Assembly (NCBI GenBank): GCA_963699235.1
Contig: OY969424.1
Location: 1,914,964 to 1,978,963 of the forward strand
Direction of reading: 5' to 3'
Origin: an uncultured Chloroflexia bacterium
Lineage (GTDB): Bacteria; Chloroflexota; Limnocylindria; QHBO01
Length of the DNA stretch: 64,000 nucleotides
Shown piece by piece: positions 4,982 through 55,306 of the stretch. The position numbers were made by a program, and so were the translations under genes. How positions within the stretch are numbered: the stretch's first letter is position 1; each line of letters starts with the position of its first letter. The notes beneath the pieces were generated by a model, which was given only the letters and a program-made list of their open reading frames with translations, ran no database searches and had not been told where the DNA came from.

Positions 4982-5010
4982 GAAGACGGCGCCCGGGGGG
5001 CGCCGTCTTC
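4982..5010 (-). terminator. stem-loop terminator candidate downstream of the zinc-ribbon gene
   Basis: Perfect 12-bp inverted repeat GAAGACGGCGCC-CGGGG-GGCGCCGTCTTC lies 41 nt after the stop at 5051. On the minus strand it is followed by AGGTTTCTG, a weak U-tract. Confidence 0.5.
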
Positions 5011-5050
5011 GCCGAATCAATCGCCGGCCGGAGCCGGCGTCATCGGTCTG

Positions 5051-5392
5051 CTAGCCGCGAACGAGGCGGAAGCAGTCGCTGCAGTACACCGGACGGGTGC
5101 CGGTTGGCTTGAAGGGCACCTGGGTGTCCTTGCCGCACCGTGCACAGACGGCGTCATGCATCTCGCGTGGGCCGCGGTCATAGCCACCGCCATAACCACC
5201 GCCTGAGCCGTAGCTGCTGCTGCTGCTGCTGCCACCGTAGCCACCCGACGCGCGGCGCTGGGCGCGGCACGAAGGGCATCGCTTCGGGGGGGATGTGAAG
5301 CCTTTCTCCGCGAAGAAGCTCTGCTCCGAGGCGGAAAAGACAAACTCGGTCCCGCAGTCAACACACGCGAGAACCTGATCGGAATAGGTCAC
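5051..5392 (-). CDS. double zinc-ribbon protein with Gly/Ser/Tyr-rich linker
   Basis: GTG start at 5392 lies 5 nt after GGAGG. Sequence reads VTYSDQVLACVDCGTEFVFSASEQSFFAEKGF..PKRCPSCR (first CxxC..CxxC ribbon), then a GGYGGSSSSSSYGSGGGYGGGY linker, then CARCGKDTQVPFKPTGTRPVYCSDCF (second ribbon). The longer 165-aa ORF version has a non-protein-like N-terminus. Confidence 0.7.
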   Translation of the reverse strand: MTYSDQVLACVDCGTEFVFSASEQSFFAEKGFTSPPKRCPSCRAQRRASGGYGGSSSSSSYGSGGGYGGGYDRGPREMHDAVCARCGKDTQVPFKPTGTRPVYCSDCFRLVRG

Positions 5393-9051: not shown

Positions 9052-11157
9052 ATGGCCTCGCCCGTCCGAATTCCCACCCTCGACCGCACCGACCTGCCCA
9101 ATCCTCCGGGCCTGGACGGCCTCCGTGAGCTGGCCGAGAACCTGTGGTGGACGTGGCATCCCGAGGCTCAGCGCCTCTTCTCGCGAGTCGATCCGCAGGC
9201 ATGGGCCCGCTCGCGCAATCCGATCCGCCTGCTCCGCCAGACCGATGCCGAGCGATGGGCGGCGCTGGCCGCCGACAGCCGCTTCGCGGCCGACACCGCG
9301 ACCGTGGTCGACCGCCTGCACGACGACATCGCCAATGGCGAGGATGGCCTGGGCAGCGACCTCGGCGGGCCGATCGCCTACCTCTGTGCGGAGTTCGCGC
9401 TCCACGAATCCCTGCCCGTTTACTCGGGTGGTCTGGGCGTGCTCGCCGGCGACCTCCTCAAGGCGGCGTCCGATGCCCGGCTGCCGATGGTCGGGGTGGG
9501 CCCGTTCTACCACCGCGGCTACTTCCGCCAGCGGATCGACGCCGATGGCCGGCAGGAGCACCTCGAGCCGGATGTCGATCCGGGAGACCTGCCGCTTCGC
9601 CGGGCGGCGGGCCCGGATGGCGGGGTGCTCGAGGTCGCGGTGGACCTGCCGGGCCGCTCGGTCAGGCTCACGGTCTGGGTCGCCCAGGTCGGACGGGTGC
9701 CGCTCCTCCTGCTCGACGCGGACGTCGAAGGCAACCAGCCCGACGATCGACGGATCACCGATCAGCTGTACGTCGCGGAGCGACGCACACGGCTCACCCA
9801 GGAAGTTTTGCTGGGCGTCGGCGCGGCCCGTGCCCTCGACGCGCTGGCGATCAGGCCCGCGGTCTGGCACCTCAACGAGGGCCACTCCGCGCTCGTCGTC
9901 CTGGAGCGCGCCCGCTTGGCGTGCGCCGCCGACCCGTCCCTCGGCGGCGCGGCGGCCCTCTTCCACGCGGGACGGGACATGGTCATGACCCTCCACACCC
10001 CGGTCCCGGCCGGAAACGAGTGCTACGACCCGGACCTCGCCGACGAGCTGCTGGCCCCGGCGGCCGCCGCCATCGACCTGTCCCGGGAGCGACTCCACGA
10101 GCTGGGGAGCGGGCCGGAAGGGACCAACGGTGTCTTCGACCTCACGGCCTTCGGGCTGCGGCAGGCGGCCGGCATCAACGCCGTCAGCCAGCTCCACGGA
10201 CGGACAGCGACGGCCACCTGGCGCGAGGCAATCGGTCGCGAGGTGGGCTCCGTCACCAACGGTGTCCATCGGGCGACCTGGCAGGCCCAGCCGATTCAGG
10301 CGGCGCTCCGCGCGGGCGGCGAGGCCACGGTCGGCGATCGCGAGCTGTGGGATGCCCATACCGAACAGAAACGGCAGATGATCGAGTTTCTGGGCGGGCG
10401 ACTGACCCGGCAGGCGCTCCGCCACGGCGTCGCGCCGGAGGCGGTGGGTGACCTCGCCGGGGCCCTCGACCCGCATGCCCTGACCATCGGCTTCGCGCGG
10501 CGCTTCGCAACGTACAAGCGGGCGGACCTCATCCTCCACGACCTCGCCCGCCTCGACCATCTCCTGGCCGACCCCGACCGACCGGTCCAGCTGATCTTCG
10601 CGGGCAAGGCCCACCCGGCCGATGACGGCGGCCAGGCGACACTCGGACGAGTGGTGGACGCGTCACGCCGTGTGGGGACGGCGGGCCGGATCTTCTTCAT
10701 CGAGAACTACGACCTGCGCGTGGCCCACTTCCTGGTGGCCGGCGTGGACGTCTGGCTGAACACGCCGCGGCGACCGCTCGAGGCTTCGGGAACGTCGGGC
10801 ATGAAGGCGGCGCTCAACGCCGTCCCGTCGGTGAGCATCCTCGACGGGTGGTGGGACGAGGCGTTCGACGGCACGAATGGCTGGGCGGTGGGCCGTCCAT
10901 CGACCGAGGACGGCGCGTCCGACGACGAGGACGCCGAGTCGCTCTATCGCGTCCTCGAGACCGAGGTCATTCCCGCCTTCTTCGGCCGCAATGACGACGG
11001 CCTGCCGCGGGCCTGGGTCGAGCGCATGCAGGGGGCGCTCCGAACGGGGCTGAACGAATTCACCGCGGACCGCGTCCTGCGCGACTACGTGGAGCAGCTG
11101 TACCGGCCGGTCGCCGCTGTCGGCGAAGTGGCAGCCAGGTCAGCTCGGTCAGCCTAG
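9052..11157 (+). CDS. glgP: alpha-glucan (maltodextrin/glycogen) phosphorylase, GT35 short form
   Basis: 701 aa with NLWWTWHPEA, IAYLCAEFALHESLPVYSGGLGVLAGD, and the GTSGMKAALN pyridoxal-phosphate Lys region. Confidence 0.9.
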   Translation: MASPVRIPTLDRTDLPNPPGLDGLRELAENLWWTWHPEAQRLFSRVDPQAWARSRNPIRLLRQTDAERWAALAADSRFAADTATVVDRLHDDIANGEDGLGSDLGGPIAYLCAEFALHESLPVYSGGLGVLAGDLLKAASDARLPMVGVGPFYHRGYFRQRIDADGRQEHLEPDVDPGDLPLRRAAGPDGGVLEVAVDLPGRSVRLTVWVAQVGRVPLLLLDADVEGNQPDDRRITDQLYVAERRTRLTQEVLLGVGAARALDALAIRPAVWHLNEGHSALVVLERARLACAADPSLGGAAALFHAGRDMVMTLHTPVPAGNECYDPDLADELLAPAAAAIDLSRERLHELGSGPEGTNGVFDLTAFGLRQAAGINAVSQLHGRTATATWREAIGREVGSVTNGVHRATWQAQPIQAALRAGGEATVGDRELWDAHTEQKRQMIEFLGGRLTRQALRHGVAPEAVGDLAGALDPHALTIGFARRFATYKRADLILHDLARLDHLLADPDRPVQLIFAGKAHPADDGGQATLGRVVDASRRVGTAGRIFFIENYDLRVAHFLVAGVDVWLNTPRRPLEASGTSGMKAALNAVPSVSILDGWWDEAFDGTNGWAVGRPSTEDGASDDEDAESLYRVLETEVIPAFFGRNDDGLPRAWVERMQGALRTGLNEFTADRVLRDYVEQLYRPVAAVGEVAARSARSA

Positions 11158-44721: not shown

Positions 44722-44810
44722 CTCCCATCGTTCCTCGCAGGGGCACCGCTCCCATTGGGTCGGTTGCCGGGCCGTCAACGAGCGAGGTCTCTCGGGCCAC
44801 TCTGGATAGG
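44722..44810 (-). promoter_or_regulatory. SAM riboswitch candidate (SAM-I / SAM-IV clan), translational type
   Basis: The minus-strand RNA reads CCUAUC-CAGAGUGG-CCCGAGAGACC...GACGGCCC-GGCAACC-GACCCAAUGGGAGC-GGUGCC-CCUGCGAGGAAC-GAUGGG-AG, then 7 nt, then AUG. It contains the clan-conserved AUCnAGAGnGG junction, a GAGnGAC kink-turn-like element, the GGCAACC/GGUGCC P3 stem and a P1 pairing (CCUAUC/GAUGGG). The 3-prime strand of P1 overlaps the GGGAG Shine-Dalgarno. Confidence 0.6.
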
Positions 44811-44882
44811 CATCGCGCGTGCGCGACCGCCCCATGGTACCCGCTGGCCACGGATGGCGTGGCGACTACAATCGGGCGGTCG

Positions 44883-44958
44883 GCGGGAGTAGCTCAGTTG
44901 GCAGAGCGTCAGCCTTCCAAGCTGAATGTCGCGGGTTCGATCCCCGTCTCCCGCTCCA
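44883..44958 (+). tRNA. tRNA-Gly (anticodon UCC), CCA encoded
   Basis: GCGGGAG acceptor stem pairs with CTCCCGC. D arm is GCTC-AGTTGGCA-GAGC. Anticodon stem TCAGC/GCTGA carries loop CTTCCAA. T arm is GCGGG-TTCGATC-CCCGT, followed by discriminator T and CCA. Confidence 0.9.
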
Positions 44959-50085: not shown

Positions 50086-53000
50086 TCAGCGGTACAGGTC
50101 CTGCCAGTCGATCTCCCAATCGGGGCGAGAGGAATCGGTGACGATCCGGTCGACCACGGGCATCTCGACCACGGGCACCTCGGAGGAGTACCACCGCGCA
50201 TCCGCGACGGCTGCGACCCGGGCCGGCCGGTGGCCGGATCCCTGCCTGAGGTGGATGACGTACATCATCAGAAGGCCGGCAACGGTCGTGACCAGGCTCG
50301 CGAGGAACAGTGGTGTGGTCCCGAGCTCCTCGGTCAGGGCGGTGTCCGGCACCCCGTCGCCATCGGGGGCATCACCCACCTCGCCGATCGCGAACTCGCT
50401 GAAGGCGGTCAGTCCGGCGGCCGTGGCCGTCGTCGGAGTCGATGGAGCGGCCGCCGGGTAGGTCCAGCCCGCGTTCCACTTGGCGACGACGAATGCCGAC
50501 GAATCCGCGCCCGGGTCGACATCGGCCGGAGCCCAGGTGAACTGCGCGTCGGCGGTGTCGAACACGACCCCGCCGCTCACGAGGCTCCACCAGCGGTTGA
50601 CGTCGGCGGACGGGTTCAGGATCGAGCTCGCGATGTCCGGGTGTTCGCCAGCGGTCGTGGTCACCGTGACCGTGCCGTCGAGGGTGACCATCCCGAAGGT
50701 CACCGAGACCGGGGCGTACGTCGTGGCGTCGCCGATCTCATAGGTCACGACCACACCCGGTCCCGACACCACCGGCTTCTCCAGCGCGCCGTCCACGTGA
50801 CCGGACGTTCGCGAGACGACACCCGCCAGGTCCATGGTCAGGACCCAGGGACGGGATCGGAGGATCCCATCCGACAGGTCGAGGCCCAGGCCGATCCGCA
50901 TCGGTCCGTTCAACGCCGCGCCGTTGGGGTTGGCCAGGCTGAGGTTGGCAAGGTCGGTGAGGCTGGCGGGGATCACGATGTTGGCGCCCGTCCCGAACAC
51001 CTCCAGCGACGACGCCGGGTTGCCCGTCAGGTTGGTCGGGCTGCCGGCGATCGGGTTGGCGATCGCGAGCAGCTGGCCGCCGAAGTCGGTCGGGCCGCCG
51101 AGGGTCAGGGTTCCTGTGACCCGGACCCCGGTGTTCAGGGTGGCTCCCGCCGGATTGCTCACCGTCAGGTCGAACAGACCGATGACGGCGGCTGCGCCGC
51201 CGAGCGTCTGCGGCGCCGTCCCGTCGAGGACCAGGGCTCCGGGGCCGGGGGAGAACGCACCGTCTATTGTCACGTCGCCGGCGACCGCGGCGACCCATCC
51301 CGCCGCGTCCAGGGTGCCACCGGAGACCCACAGGTCGCCGTTGACGTCGAGGTCGTCGAGGAGCGTCGCCGTCCCGCCGGTGACTCGGACGTCGGAGAAG
51401 GCCATGCCCGCGGCGTTGATGGTCGTACCGGTGTCGAACACGACCAGCGACGTTCCGGCATCCACCGTCCCGTCCAGCCAGGTCCAGGACGAGGTGAGGA
51501 GCCGAATCGTCCCCGCCAGGAACAGCGTGCCGGAGGGCTTGTCGATGACGACGTTGGCCACGTCGCCGGTGGTCGTGGTCGCGCTTCCGGTGAACGTTTG
51601 CGTACCCGTTCCCGCGATGAGGAGGGTGCCGGTCTCGCCGTCGAATGTGTCGAGCAGCGTGATGTCGCCCAGTGCCGCCATCGTCCCGCCCTCGAGGTCG
51701 CCGTTGATCAACGTCAGGGGACCGCTCACGCTGACGGTGTCGCCGACGGCGACCACCACGGCCCCTGAGCGCAGCTCGACGGCGTCGAGGGTGTGGGTGC
51801 CCGAGATGGTCAGGTTGCCGGTGAAGACGACCGTGCTGCCGGCCGTGACCAGGCCACCACTGAGGTAGGTCCAGTTCCGGCCGGTGCGGAGGGTGCCGGT
51901 CAGGGTCAGGCTGGCGGCGGGCTTATCGAAGGTGACGTTGGGCAGGCTGCCGGTGGTCGAGTTGTGGAAGCCAGTGAAGGTCTGCGGGCCGGGGCCGTTG
52001 ACCAGGACCGTCGCCGTCCCGCCGCCGGTGAACCCGACCCGGGCGACGAGGTCGCCCTCGACGGCCAGGGTGCCGGTGTTGAGGGCCCCACTGAACAGCT
52101 CGAGGCTGCCGGCCGCGGTCAGGGTCGTACCGGCGGCCAGTGTCACCGTGCCCCGGACCTCGACGTTGTGCAGGCTGTGCGAACCGGTGATCGTGCCGCC
52201 GGTGAACACGACCGTGCTGCCGGTCGTGACCAGGCCACCGGGGGCCGCGGTGTAGGTCCAGTTGCGGCCGGTGCGGAGGGTGTCGGTGATGGTCAGCACG
52301 CCGGAGGGCTTGCTGATCTCGATGTTGGGCAGGCTGCCGGCGACGGTGGTGTGGTCACCGTCAAAGACCTGGACACCGGGGCCGTTGAACAGGAGAAGGG
52401 CGGTCCCGCCGCCGGTGAAGCCGATACGGGCGTGGACGTCGCCCTGGGCAGCCAACGTGCCGGTGGCAGCCACCTGGTTGAGCGTCCCGCTGAACAGCTC
52501 GGTGGCACCGGCCGCGGTCAGGGTCGTGCCGGCAGCCAGCGTGACCGTGCCCCGCACCTGGACCGCGTCGAGGGTGTGCGAACCGGTGATCGTGCCGCCG
52601 GTGAAGACGAGGGTGTGGCCCGTCACGGTGAGACCGCCCGCTGCGGTATAGGTCCAGTTGCGGCCGGTGCGGAGCGTGTCGGTCAGCGTCAGGGTCCCGC
52701 TTGGCTTGTTGATCTCGACGTTCGGCAGGCTGCCGGCGACGGTGGTGTGGTCGCCGTCGAACGTCTGGGCCCCGGAGCCGTTCAACAGGAAAAGGGCGGT
52801 GCCGCCGCCGGTGAAGCCGATCCGGGCGTGGACGTCGCCCTGGGCGGCCAGGGTGCCGGTGGCAGCCACCTGGTTGAGGGTCCCGCTGAACAGCTCGGTG
52901 GTGCCGGTCGCGGTCAGGGTCGTACCGGCGGCCAGTGTCACCGTGCCCCGGATCTCGACGTTGTTCAGGGTCTGCGAGCCGGTGACCGTGCCCCCGGCGA

Positions 53001-55110
53001 AGACCATCGTGTGGCCGGTGGTGGTGAACGTGCCGGGGACCGCGGTGTAGGTCCAGTTGTGGGAGGTGCGGAGGGTGCCGGCCAGGGTCAGGTTGCCGGC
53101 CGGCTTGTTGATGACCACGTTCGGCATGTCGCCGCTGCCGACCGCGTGGCTGGCAGTGATCGTCTGGTTGCCGGCCCCGTTCAGGAGGAGCGTGCCCGAG
53201 CTGCTGGTCGCCGTGAAGCCGGCCGCCACGGTGACGTCGCCCTGAGCGGCGAGGGTGCCGGTCGCGACCGCGCCGGTGACCAGGGCCACGGATCCGGTGG
53301 CGGTGACCGTCGTCCCGGCCGCGATGGTGATCGTGCCGCCCCGGATCTCGACGTTGTTCAGGGTCTGCGAGCCGGTGACCGTGCCCCCGGCGAAGACCAT
53401 CGTGTGGCCGGTGGTGGTGAACGTGCCGGGGACCGCGGTGTAGGTCCAGTTGTGGGAGGTGCGGAGGGTGCCGGCCAGGGTCAGGTTGCCGGCCGGCTTG
53501 TTGATGACCACGTTCGGCATGTCGCCGCTGCCGACCGCGTGGCTGGCAGTGATCGTCTGGTTGCCGGCCCCGTTCAGGAGGAGCGTGCCCGAGCTGCTGG
53601 TCGCCGTGAAGCCGGCCGCCACGGTGACGTCGCCCTGAGCGGCGAGGGTGCCGGTCGCGACCGCGCCGGTGACCAGGGCCACGGATCCGGTGGCGGTGAC
53701 CGTCGTCCCGGCCGCGATGGTGATCGTGCCGCCCCGGATCTCGACGTTGTTCAGGGTCTGCGAGCCGGTGACCGTGCCCCCGGCGAAGACCATCGTGTGG
53801 CCGGTGGTGGTGAACGTGCCGGGGACCGCGGTGTAGGTCCAGTTGTGGGAGGTGCGGAGGGTGCCGGCCAGGGTCAGGTTGCCGGCCGGCTTGTTGATGA
53901 CCACGTTCGGCATGTCGCCGCTGCCGACCGCGTGGCTGGCAGTGATCGTCTGGTTGCCGGCCCCGTTCAGGAGGAGCGTGCCCGAGCTGCTGGTCGCCGT
54001 GAAGCCGGCCGCCACGGTGACGTCGCCCTGAGCGGCGAGGGTGCCGGTCGCGACCGCGCCGGTGACCAGGGCCACGGATCCGGTGGCGGTGACCGTCGTC
54101 CCGGCCGCGATGGTGATCGTGCCGCCCCGGATCTCGACGTTGTTCAGGGTCTGCGAGCCGGTGACCGTGCCCCCGGCGAAGACCATCGTGTGGCCGGTGG
54201 TGGTGAACGTGCCGGGGACCGCGGTGTAGGTCCAGTTGTGGGAGGTGCGGAGGGTGCCGGCCAGGGTCAGGTTGCCGGCCGGCTTGTTGATGACCACGTT
54301 CGGCATGTCGCCGCTGCCGACCGCGTGGCTGGCAGTGATCGTCTGGTTGCCGGCCCCGTTCAGGAGGAGCGTGCCCGAGCTGCTGGTCGCCGTGAAGCCG
54401 GCCGCCACGGTGACGTCGCCCTGAGCGGCGAGGGTGCCGGTCGCGACCGCGCCGCCCGTGAGGCTCAGCGTCCCGACGATGTCCAGCGTGTCTCCCGCCG
54501 CGACCGTCTTGGTGCCGGACAGGAAGGCAACGTTGTTCAGGGTGAGGCTCGTCGGGACATCGATCGTGGCGTTGCTGGTGGAGAAGGTCACGGTTCCCAG
54601 GTTGTGGGCGAACGAGCCGCCGGAGACGGTGAACGCCCCGTTCACGGTCAGGGTGGCGGCGGTGCTCGTGAACGAGCCGCCGCTGAGGGTGAACTGGTCG
54701 CTGACCGTGATGGCCGCCGTGCCACCGACAAAGGTGCCGCCGGCCTGGATGAAGTCGGCCACGCCCCCGGTCACGGTCAGCGTCGTGCCGAGCGCCTGGG
54801 TGACCACGCCGGCGTAGGTGGCCGCGATGGTCACGCCCTGGACGGTCGCGTTCACATTGATGGTGACCGGCTCGGCGCTGGTCGCGTCGAACACGACGGT
54901 GTCGCCTGCGACAGGGGCGACATCGCCCACCCAGTTCAGCGGATCGGTCCAGTTCTGGGTCGCCAGTGAACCGCCGTCCCACGTCCGTGTCGCGCCGGCG
55001 ACGGGCGCGGGAACGCCCACCACGACCAGGATCGTGACAACGATCAAGGTCGGAGTGAAGAGCAGGCGAGTGGCGCCGATGGCGGTGCGCAGGGATGCAG
55101 CGAGGCTCAA
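50086..55110 (-). CDS. giant repeat-containing cell-surface protein (beta-helix-like modules, N-terminal signal, C-terminal TM anchor)
   Basis: Continuous 1674-aa ORF with TTG start. It has a signal-like N-terminus, 8 tandem ~131-aa modules, a C-terminal TM helix and a charged tail. The Gly/Thr/Val/Ala-rich beta-strand periodicity is coding-like; the overlapping 1058-aa and 957-aa ORFs are Arg/Gly/Pro-rich shadows. Confidence 0.85.
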   Translation of the reverse strand: MSLAASLRTAIGATRLLFTPTLIVVTILVVVGVPAPVAGATRTWDGGSLATQNWTDPLNWVGDVAPVAGDTVVFDATSAEPVTINVNATVQGVTIAATYAGVVTQALGTTLTVTGGVADFIQAGGTFVGGTAAITVSDQFTLSGGSFTSTAATLTVNGAFTVSGGSFAHNLGTVTFSTSNATIDVPTSLTLNNVAFLSGTKTVAAGDTLDIVGTLSLTGGAVATGTLAAQGDVTVAAGFTATSSSGTLLLNGAGNQTITASHAVGSGDMPNVVINKPAGNLTLAGTLRTSHNWTYTAVPGTFTTTGHTMVFAGGTVTGSQTLNNVEIRGGTITIAAGTTVTATGSVALVTGAVATGTLAAQGDVTVAAGFTATSSSGTLLLNGAGNQTITASHAVGSGDMPNVVINKPAGNLTLAGTLRTSHNWTYTAVPGTFTTTGHTMVFAGGTVTGSQTLNNVEIRGGTITIAAGTTVTATGSVALVTGAVATGTLAAQGDVTVAAGFTATSSSGTLLLNGAGNQTITASHAVGSGDMPNVVINKPAGNLTLAGTLRTSHNWTYTAVPGTFTTTGHTMVFAGGTVTGSQTLNNVEIRGGTITIAAGTTVTATGSVALVTGAVATGTLAAQGDVTVAAGFTATSSSGTLLLNGAGNQTITASHAVGSGDMPNVVINKPAGNLTLAGTLRTSHNWTYTAVPGTFTTTGHTMVFAGGTVTGSQTLNNVEIRGTVTLAAGTTLTATGTTELFSGTLNQVAATGTLAAQGDVHARIGFTGGGTALFLLNGSGAQTFDGDHTTVAGSLPNVEINKPSGTLTLTDTLRTGRNWTYTAAGGLTVTGHTLVFTGGTITGSHTLDAVQVRGTVTLAAGTTLTAAGATELFSGTLNQVAATGTLAAQGDVHARIGFTGGGTALLLFNGPGVQVFDGDHTTVAGSLPNIEISKPSGVLTITDTLRTGRNWTYTAAPGGLVTTGSTVVFTGGTITGSHSLHNVEVRGTVTLAAGTTLTAAGSLELFSGALNTGTLAVEGDLVARVGFTGGGTATVLVNGPGPQTFTGFHNSTTGSLPNVTFDKPAASLTLTGTLRTGRNWTYLSGGLVTAGSTVVFTGNLTISGTHTLDAVELRSGAVVVAVGDTVSVSGPLTLINGDLEGGTMAALGDITLLDTFDGETGTLLIAGTGTQTFTGSATTTTGDVANVVIDKPSGTLFLAGTIRLLTSSWTWLDGTVDAGTSLVVFDTGTTINAAGMAFSDVRVTGGTATLLDDLDVNGDLWVSGGTLDAAGWVAAVAGDVTIDGAFSPGPGALVLDGTAPQTLGGAAAVIGLFDLTVSNPAGATLNTGVRVTGTLTLGGPTDFGGQLLAIANPIAGSPTNLTGNPASSLEVFGTGANIVIPASLTDLANLSLANPNGAALNGPMRIGLGLDLSDGILRSRPWVLTMDLAGVVSRTSGHVDGALEKPVVSGPGVVVTYEIGDATTYAPVSVTFGMVTLDGTVTVTTTAGEHPDIASSILNPSADVNRWWSLVSGGVVFDTADAQFTWAPADVDPGADSSAFVVAKWNAGWTYPAAAPSTPTTATAAGLTAFSEFAIGEVGDAPDGDGVPDTALTEELGTTPLFLASLVTTVAGLLMMYVIHLRQGSGHRPARVAAVADARWYSSEVPVVEMPVVDRIVTDSSRPDWEIDWQDLYR
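51298..54460 (-). repeat. full module array of the giant ORF (8 units of 130-132 codons; 4 identical, 4 diverged)
   Basis: Protein-level units start at about aa 223, 354, 485, 616 (type A), 750, 882 (type B), 1012 (C) and 1142 (D). All share GTLAAQGDV-like, NV.I.KP.G.LTL and NWTY motifs. The boundaries are approximate. Confidence 0.75.
52945..54454 (-). repeat. perfect tandem repeat, 393-bp unit x 3.84 copies, inside the giant ORF
   Basis: Line-by-line comparison shows identical sequence at a 393-nt period, for example starts at 53057, 53450, 53843 and 54236. Identity begins at 52945 and ends at 54454. 393 nt equals 131 codons, so the frame is kept. Confidence 0.95.
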
Positions 55111-55306
55111 TCGACGCGGCGCTTGGATGACTATGGATCCACTCCAAATGGCCCCCGAGGGCGGATCCTCCTCCTTCGTCTCCGTGACGCGAGCCCTGCG
55201 TAGGCGACGACGATCCTGTAAACGAGGATATCAAACGCCGTTCGGCGCGATGTCGGAATCACCACTTCAGCGGCCGGATTCCGGTACCCCCTCGATGAAC
55301 CGCGCG

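Follow-up and report, generated by a model that had tools for sequence, protein, structure and literature searches.

An identical 393-bp tandem array in the gene of a predicted Periscope-like beta-solenoid surface protein from an uncultured Chloroflexota bacterium

Letter-perfect large repeats in surface-protein genes are a hallmark of variable-length stalk proteins. To our knowledge, nearly all work on such proteins has concerned pathogens and commensals. The gene described here lies in a 64,000-nt stretch of DNA (the window; positions 1,914,964–1,978,963 of contig OY969424.1, assembly GCA_963699235.1) from an uncultured Chloroflexia bacterium, and carries 3.84 identical tandem copies of a 393-bp unit within its coding sequence. 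All coordinates below are window positions unless a homologue is named. Among described systems, the Periscope Proteins are single chains with an N-terminal signal, a C-terminal wall anchor and highly identical repeats whose number varies between strains (PMC8201768, PMC9704523). This class was recognised thanks to long reads and is represented by SasG, Rib/alpha C, Sgo_0707, Esp and CdrA, together with the beta-helical PATR repeats of Salmonella ShdA, which occur in 4–6 copies (PMC8201768, PMC9704523). Its definition further includes individually folding repeat domains, an anisotropic rod that sets the projection distance, and a distal functional domain; homologous recombination is the proposed driver for the repeats (PMC9704523). 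For the locus in the window, we consider it likely that the array is real and that it is the youngest layer of recurrent recombination among the ~130-residue modules of a Periscope-like cell-surface beta-solenoid fibre.

The gene resembles the Periscope class in several respects. Its product is predicted from sequence to be a single chain with an N-terminal signal and a C-terminal (LPXTG-like) anchor, the stalk is encoded by DNA-identical tandem repeats (393 bp × 3.84 at 100%), and a rigid rod is predicted. The repeat number differs among relatives and is reliably seen only with long reads. Unlike in Periscope Proteins, the unit appears in the structural model as a ~5-coil slice of a continuous solenoid and not as an autonomous, linker-joined globular domain, the host is an uncultured soil/sediment Chloroflexota bacterium without host or immune context, and no distal ligand-binding domain was found in this gene. 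Strain-level length variation is known in the class and is only a possibility for this gene. The theme of a variable-length surface protein is known and the mechanism is not new; what is new is an environmental, solenoid-based example.

A module hidden Markov model (HMM) splits the Thr/Gly/Ala/Val-rich region of the protein into eight modules (M1–M8) of ~130 amino acids (aa) each, which start at aa 224, 355, 486, 617, 751, 883, 1012 and 1141. At 52945–54454, Tandem Repeats Finder reported a period of 393 with 3.8 copies, 100% matches, 0% indels and a score of 3020, and direct comparison at a lag of 393 found 0 mismatches in 1510 bp. The perfect run consists of 3 × 393 + 331 bp, or 3.84 copies, and cannot be extended by one base at either end. 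The unit equals exactly 131 codons and keeps the frame, and the array covers aa 219/220–722 of the 1674-aa minus-strand open reading frame (ORF) 50086–55110. Both the copy number and the in-frame unit had been given in a preliminary description of the stretch and were reproduced here, as was its statement that the next modules in the gene are clearly diverged: DNA identity to the unit is 100% for M1–M3 and 93% for M4, then 70.6% for M5, 68% for M6, 65% for M7 and 53% for M8. The adjoining stretch 51817–53126 has a period of 396 bp with matches of just 75–81% (Tandem Repeats Finder), and no second tandem repeat of comparable size was found in the 64-kb window. M5 and M6 are 83% identical in DNA and 84% in amino acids, with a nonsynonymous to synonymous rate ratio (dN/dS) of 0.31. 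Because the remaining module pairs are 52–83% identical and identity falls to ~50% directly beyond both array edges, chance is excluded as the cause of the array.

The 84 nt that follow the array end within M4 match the M5 tail at 76 positions and the M6 tail at 28. M4 is thus chimeric, an A-type head being joined to a B-type tail, and the array edge is a recombination junction. A clean 393-bp duplication would give whole periods; the fractional number of 3.84 and the chimeric junction are what would remain if an A copy was exchanged with its B-type neighbour. Judged by identities of 100%, 93% and 83%, the gene holds duplication layers of differing age. The array copies themselves show 0 differences at 1117 compared sites, synonymous ones included, which sets a 95% upper bound on their divergence of 0.27%. 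By comparison, the flanks in the window have diverged by ~18–19% from L001, the closest genome in synteny, and the bound is less than 2% of that figure. That modules form a regular, confidently predicted structure would be in keeping with protein-level selection, and not recency or homogenisation, holding them identical. This account is rejected because synonymous positions are all identical too; moreover, other rod modules are just 41–84% identical in protein and orthologues use different sequences. We regard it as extremely improbable. The preliminary description had instead proposed that the array expanded very recently or is being homogenised, through unequal recombination or gene conversion, and this is supported by the synonymous identity, the chimeric M4, the arrays of orthologues and a conversion tract in homologues.

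Searches returned 166 homologues. Those closest in sequence (57–65% identity) are annotated as hypothetical and come from metagenome-assembled genomes (MAGs) of Candidatus Limnocylindria, from MAGs labelled Dormibacterota and from 'uncultured Chloroflexia' MAGs; some of the homologues bear the label 'fibronectin-binding autotransporter adhesin' from the Joint Genome Institute (JGI). The host is an uncultured high-GC, Limnocylindria-like member of the Chloroflexota. A literature search on Limnocylindria surface proteins found nothing relevant. The window from ~35 to 64 kb is collinear by tblastx with L001, a 1.36-Mb contig of MFD05454.bin.2.164, and the shared order is MMPL, DUF1003, CoA-transferase III, repeat protein, luciferase-like oxidoreductase, dCMP deaminase and DUF2461. 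The loci L062 and L063 keep the order from MMPL to DUF2461 around their repeat gene. Because the gene order is shared, the repeat genes of the window, L001, L062 and L063 are positional orthologues. Between the window and L001, flanking DNA is 81–82% identical and the repeat gene is 71–73% identical in DNA (65% in protein); the repeat gene evolves faster than its neighbours.

Perfect protein-level tandem modules with periods of 123–138 aa were present in 22 of the top 66 homologues, and none were found among the distant Bacteroidota or Planctomycetota homologues. The positional orthologue L001/L012 carries two arrays, 414 bp × 2.87 and 384 bp × 3.11, each 100% identical, which overlap by 123 bp; the two unit types therefore have an identical segment in common. 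L002/L009 has a perfect array of 387 bp × 5.01, and L008 has perfect arrays of 402 bp × 4.46 and 387 bp × 3.42. Syntenic orthologues differ in which module is amplified. In the window only the first module type was amplified, with a period of 131 codons versus 138 in L001, where amplification concerned the first module type and the orthologue of the single-copy M7 of the window. M7 and M8 are 78% and 86% identical in amino acids to the last two modules of the orthologue P0002, without homogenisation with their neighbours. The first module type is single-copy in several relatives, and array boundaries map to many different module positions across homologues. The arrays of the window and L001 are independent events after the lineages split.

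A tree-free nearest-neighbour analysis of 397 modules from 67 proteins showed where homogenisation takes place. The last module before the C-terminal domain had its closest relative in another protein in 52 of 66 cases, and modules at least four positions from the C-terminal end had theirs in the same protein in 120 of 200. As these module comparisons show it, the distal stalk evolves in concert upon a conserved proximal base. Identity between adjacent modules is bimodal, with 32 pairs at ≥99%, 6 pairs at 90–99% and a broad hump at 60–80%. The pairs are not independent, and the bimodality is only suggestive that arrays are kept homogenised, or are lost fast with few diverging. The locus is like concerted evolution of tandem arrays in that modules within a protein are more alike than orthologous ones, and in its 100% identity spike, mosaic modules and conversion tract. 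No essential difference from that model was seen, and the locus is a clean example of it within a single bacterial gene. In the DUF11/CLIPPER-containing branch (L014–L024), the membrane-proximal DUF11 region, which lies at ~9100–10500 and follows the C-terminal domain, likewise holds long direct repeats that are identical (periods of 762–768 bp); it is a second protein part with identical-repeat behaviour in that branch.

Informative pairs of homologues were drawn from members of 90%-identity clusters. L062 (GCA_040881155.1) and L063 (GCA_040879065.1) are NCBI MAGs of one population that show 33 differences in 11,148 bp, all of them at 5007–5351. In L062 this segment lies in one module, and its sequence equals that of the module 1161 bp upstream. 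The difference is an apparent gene-conversion tract of ~300–345 bp between near-clonal genomes. In another pair, L060 (JGI) and L061 (European Nucleotide Archive) share ~99% identity, and the length difference between them is a single whole 381-bp unit of a perfect array (2.28 versus 1.28 copies). A DDE transposase gene (DDE_5 / DDE_Tnp_1) is located at 1193–2446 of L060, ~360 bp upstream of the homologue with the 381-bp × 2.28 array. Some candidate length variants were discarded: P0058 versus P0012 and P0053 versus P0019 were explained by gene calls cut short at the N-terminus, and P0130, P0019 and P0132 differ at frameshifted ends only.

The whole protein had no match above cut-off in Pfam and NCBIfam, only weak Bactofilin/FapA/Amnionless-type solenoid noise, and a PDB sequence search gave no match at E ≤ 0.1. 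An AlphaFold2 model was obtained for aa 38–616 (579 aa, the N-terminal part plus three modules; 37-sequence alignment), with a mean predicted local distance difference test score (pLDDT) of 94.8 and a predicted template modelling score (pTM) of 0.87. The model contains short strands only, ~15 per module, and has no low-confidence linker at the module boundaries; its continuity across these boundaries argues against independent globular domains. We read the modules and the N-terminal part as one continuous rigid beta-solenoid rod. Taking three strands per coil, each module would form ~5 coils with a rise of ~2.4 nm. The N-terminal region also contains a partial module-HMM match at aa 124–223 and a weak Amnionless-type match (E 0.04). 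Foldseek placed the rod model near EtpA, antigen 43 (Ag43), Hap, Hbp, IgA1 protease and the MpAFP antifreeze helix, and most of the top-scoring neighbours are beta-helical surface proteins.

The predicted product thus resembles Ag43, Hap, Hbp, EtpA and FHA as an elongated beta-helix surface fibre, with EtpA, Ag43 and Hap as its top, though weak, structural neighbours. Unlike autotransporter and two-partner secretion (TPS) adhesins, it gave no match to beta-barrel translocator, TPS, PATR, Pertactin or Haemagglutinin models (Pfam/NCBIfam, E ≤ 1), it has a single C-terminal membrane helix with a sorting motif, and no such transporter is found among the neighbours. Classification as an autotransporter or a TPS adhesin was rejected, since the translocator domains were not found; classification as a strict contingency locus was rejected as well, as the unit is 393 bp and in frame.

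In 23 of the 66 homologues, the C-terminus carries the motif [LVM][PA][DN]T[AGST], then a hydrophobic helix and then a tail rich in Arg. In the protein encoded in the window, VPDTA, the helix and a tail starting with R have the layout of an LPXTG-type sorting signal; the predicted sortase anchoring is only a lead. The tail of the VPDTA protein is unusually long (53 aa), and most other homologues have a short Arg-rich tail only. The terminal motif W-x-x-x-W-Q-[DE]-x-[FY]-R of this tail, which ends in RPDWEIDWQDLYR, recurs in P0002, P0010 (GPQWEIFWQEFFR) and P0021 (KAEWQTCWQEHFR). With its signal peptide, solenoid-like model, LPXTG-like motif and C-terminal membrane helix, all predicted features, the gene fits the earlier description as one for a surface protein.

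The C-terminal domain was modelled with a pLDDT of 95.2 and has a mean column identity of 63% in the alignment. Its fold matches are weak (ZU5/FIIND of NLRP1 and CARD8, GAIN and the tapirin C-terminal domain), and no Pfam match lies within it at E ≤ 1. Because no fold match was strong enough, no function is assigned to the rod or to this domain. The C-terminal domain is very widespread: a profile search matched 1974 representative proteins at E ≤ 1e-30, a number that rises to 11,031 at E ≤ 1e-3. Many proteins with the domain are giant (up to 6.7 kaa), and some show several matched stretches. The end of the domain is marked by the conserved motif [ML]T[SA][FL]S[ED]FA[VI]G.

Misaligned exchange and gene conversion are proposed as the mechanism because of the chimeric M4, the 123-bp segment shared by the two L001 arrays and the L062 conversion tract. 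The protein would be exported by its signal peptide and held by the LPXTG-like motif and the C-terminal membrane helix, and its N-terminus would be carried outwards on a continuous rod. Neighbouring modules would be similar enough in DNA for misaligned homologous pairing, so that unequal exchange could gain or lose whole 393-bp units and gene conversion could replace one module with another, the frame being kept in either case. In the lineage of the window, the first and most distal module type would have been amplified to four copies very recently, and a later exchange with a B-type module would have produced the chimeric fourth copy. The rod would then change its length stepwise, by ~5 coils or ~2.4 nm per module. 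The data show the array, the architecture, the recurrence of arrays in orthologues, concerted evolution and a conversion tract in a homologue; the route of recombination, attachment by a sortase, the rise of each module and an adaptive use of length variation, if there is one, are inferences.

Several points weigh against this reading. The fold matches of the rod are weak (best E 0.015; TM-score ~0.2), no sortase-like ORF was detected in the 64-kb window with a TLxTC regular expression, and no distinct N-terminal ligand-binding domain was recognised, the N-terminal ~180 residues being modelled as further solenoid with no Pfam match above cut-off; ligand binding could reside on the solenoid face. 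No protein with more than 65% identity to the gene product was found among 5.8 billion clusters, JGI metagenome contigs lack any exact match to a 44-mer of the unit, and the GTDB species representatives that were matched do not include the window. L060 and L061 are both short-read assemblies, in which repeat collapse is likely, and the L062/L063 tract could in principle be an assembly difference. The copy number of 3.84 is that of the assembly. Perfect arrays in the module region were present in 10 of 13 long-read but 0 of 9 short-read Chloroflexota loci with the C-terminal domain. The long-read loci are Microflora Danica MAGs, which were assembled from Nanopore reads with Flye (--meta --nano-hq) and one round of Medaka (PMC12313526); bins with arrays include MFD05454.bin.2.164, MFD04944.bin.1.320 and MFD02242.bin.1.231.

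These last observations, and the indel errors of long-read relatives (frames that are disrupted, tails rich in Arg because they are read out of frame, and repeats with periods of 760, 761 and 763), could mean that the true units differ in number or sequence and that an assembler or consensus step produced or homogenised the 3.84 copies. The 10/13 versus 0/9 pattern fits long-read pipelines creating arrays, and it fits short-read assemblers failing on them as well; the latter is favoured. The 1.5-kb array is shorter than typical long reads, and spanning reads would fix its number and register. Long-read pipelines leave indel differences among copies elsewhere (periods 760–763), so that identity is not forced on the copies. 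A perfect 381-bp × 2.28 array is present in a JGI short-read contig too, and 3 of the 9 short-read contigs of relatives end inside modules (frame walk), as expected of real repeats that short reads cannot resolve. In addition, the frame in the window is intact over 1674 codons. We therefore regard an artefact as unlikely, and keep to a real array. A wrong exact copy number, as opposed to the existence of the array, remains quite possible, and 3.84 is provisional. The caution in the preliminary description that assemblers mis-estimate such loci is borne out by the long-read versus short-read counts and by the contigs that end in modules. Residual indel signs in GC-rich repeats were also observed in the Nanopore homologues L017, L018, L020, L021, L024 and L051, and in P0007, P0017, P0019, P0022, P0026 and others. 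They consist of frames with interruptions, C-termini that are out of frame and rich in Arg and Pro, and periods not divisible by three (760, 761, 763, 386, 388).

A real, recombination-driven array could also be the mere instability of a repetitive gene, with the cell indifferent to rod length. The dN/dS between diverged modules is 0.31–1.05, which indicates weak constraint as expected of a spacer-like stalk. Module number reaches 13 among the homologues with no evident pattern, no ligand-binding tip domain was recognised by Pfam or Foldseek, and no dedicated machinery is present among the called neighbours of syntenic loci; all of this is in line with such neutral churn. Against it, many lineages retain the modular stalk, and no array of a well-assembled locus disrupts the frame. 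The trough at 90–99% identity suggests homogenisation or quick removal and not drift, and a change of length does affect surface interactions in those Periscope Proteins that have been characterised (PMC8201768, PMC9704523). For this gene, these points do not discriminate strongly, and neutral churn is somewhat doubtful as the whole explanation.

The preliminary description had also suggested a contingency-type length variation. For this gene, such switching is plausible but unproven. Like simple-sequence contingency loci, the array is repeat-mediated and frame-aware, with a locally elevated mutation rate in a surface-protein gene. Unlike them, its unit is 393 bp and not 1–9 bp, length and not expression changes, and homologous exchange is likelier than slippage. 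A dedicated system acting on the gene, such as a diversity-generating retroelement, a site-specific invertase or a short-repeat slippage switch, can hardly be credited. No point in its support was found. Neither a reverse transcriptase, a recombinase, an invertase nor a secretion component occurs among the called neighbours of the syntenic loci, with which the window shares gene order by tblastx. A 393-bp in-frame unit cannot switch the gene on or off, and Tandem Repeats Finder detected no short tandem repeats at the gene start.

A wider interpretation, which we put forward tentatively as a possibility, is that this surface-fibre family of soil Chloroflexota consists of 'accordion solenoids', in which a ~5-coil slice of one continuous beta-helix, and not a folded domain, is gained or lost and populations of mixed lengths are tuned by pressure from phage, predators or attachment. 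If so, any in-register exchange would lengthen or shorten the rod by a fixed step and leave no seam in it. The Periscope idea would then extend past host-associated bacteria and beads-on-a-string architectures, and short-read MAG catalogues would systematically misrepresent these genes. Independent arrays in most long-read genomes of a large, unannotated soil/sediment Chloroflexota family amount to a family-wide generalisation. Their recurrence suggests that, beyond host-associated niches, bacteria generally use variation in surface length as a strategy, or are at least generally prone to this instability. For metagenomics, the warning is that these genes are intact only in long-read assemblies and that a copy number from a single assembly is provisional. 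A specialist would find the phenomenon unsurprising; the environmental solenoid example and the misrepresentation by short reads are possibly of value.

The features of the gene are listed in Table 1. The minus strand is taken as the coding strand because the GC content at third codon positions (GC3) is 0.93 in its frame, matching the flanking genes (0.90–0.94). A plus-strand ORF at 51793–54969 (1058 aa) was considered as the true gene and rejected as a shadow ORF, as its GC3 is 0.58 and its GC content at first codon positions is 0.95, and the minus-strand product has homologues. The first available start is a TTG at 55110, and the stop codon is at 50086–50088. The putative cleavage site of the signal peptide is placed at PAPVAGA|TRTWDGG by inspection; TRTWDGG, which follows the signal segment, is conserved at the mature N-terminus of homologues.

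Table 1. Parts of the repeat-protein gene, in window coordinates
Feature	Position	Strand	Basis
Whole gene, predicted secreted, C-terminally anchored beta-solenoid repeat protein, 1674 aa	50086-55110	-	ORF list, translation, GC3, homologues, synteny
Predicted signal peptide / N-terminal hydrophobic segment, aa 1-40, ...PAPVAGA|TRTWDGG	54991-55110	-	hydropathy peak aa 10-42
Predicted N-terminal, cell-distal beta-solenoid region, aa 41-218, including partial module	54457-54990	-	AlphaFold model pLDDT 94.8, short strands throughout
Perfect array: M1-M3 (54062-54454, 53669-54061, 53276-53668) and M4 head (partial, 331 bp, 52945-53275)	52945-54454	-	lag 393
M4 tail, M5-type	52861-52944	-	76/84 nt identical to M5 tail
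M5 (52465-52860) and M6 (52078-52464), older duplicate pair	52078-52860	-	83% DNA, 84% aa
M7 (51691-52077) and M8 (51415-51690)	51415-52077	-	positional orthologues of last two modules of P0002
Conserved 345-aa C-terminal domain, aa 1233-1577, predicted solenoid end and beta-sandwich	50380-51414	-	alignment, AlphaFold
VPDTA, LPXTG-like putative sorting motif, aa 1587-1591	50338-50352	-	read from sequence
Predicted C-terminal membrane helix (aa 1598-1621, 50248-50319) and 53-aa tail ending RPDWEIDWQDLYR	50089-50319	-	hydropathy peak 2.23

Upstream of the TTG, 30 codons at 55111–55200 (minus strand) are open in frame without an ATG, GTG or TTG, and they are similar to the N-terminus that is annotated for the orthologue P0002 (EEDP.PGA.WSGSIVIQA.RR). 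The true start may lie upstream of the TTG, or 55111–55200 may be a conserved leader. A promoter and terminator scan around the gene gave nothing exceeding the shuffled expectation. At 52–54 kb the repeats raise the GC skew to a local peak of 0.134 and lower the AT skew to a trough of -0.169. Elsewhere in the window, features at 44722–44812 (minus strand) and 44883–44958 (plus strand) correspond to a SAM riboswitch (RF00162, 45.6 bits; gathering score 44.4) adjoining a tRNA-Gly(TCC) gene.

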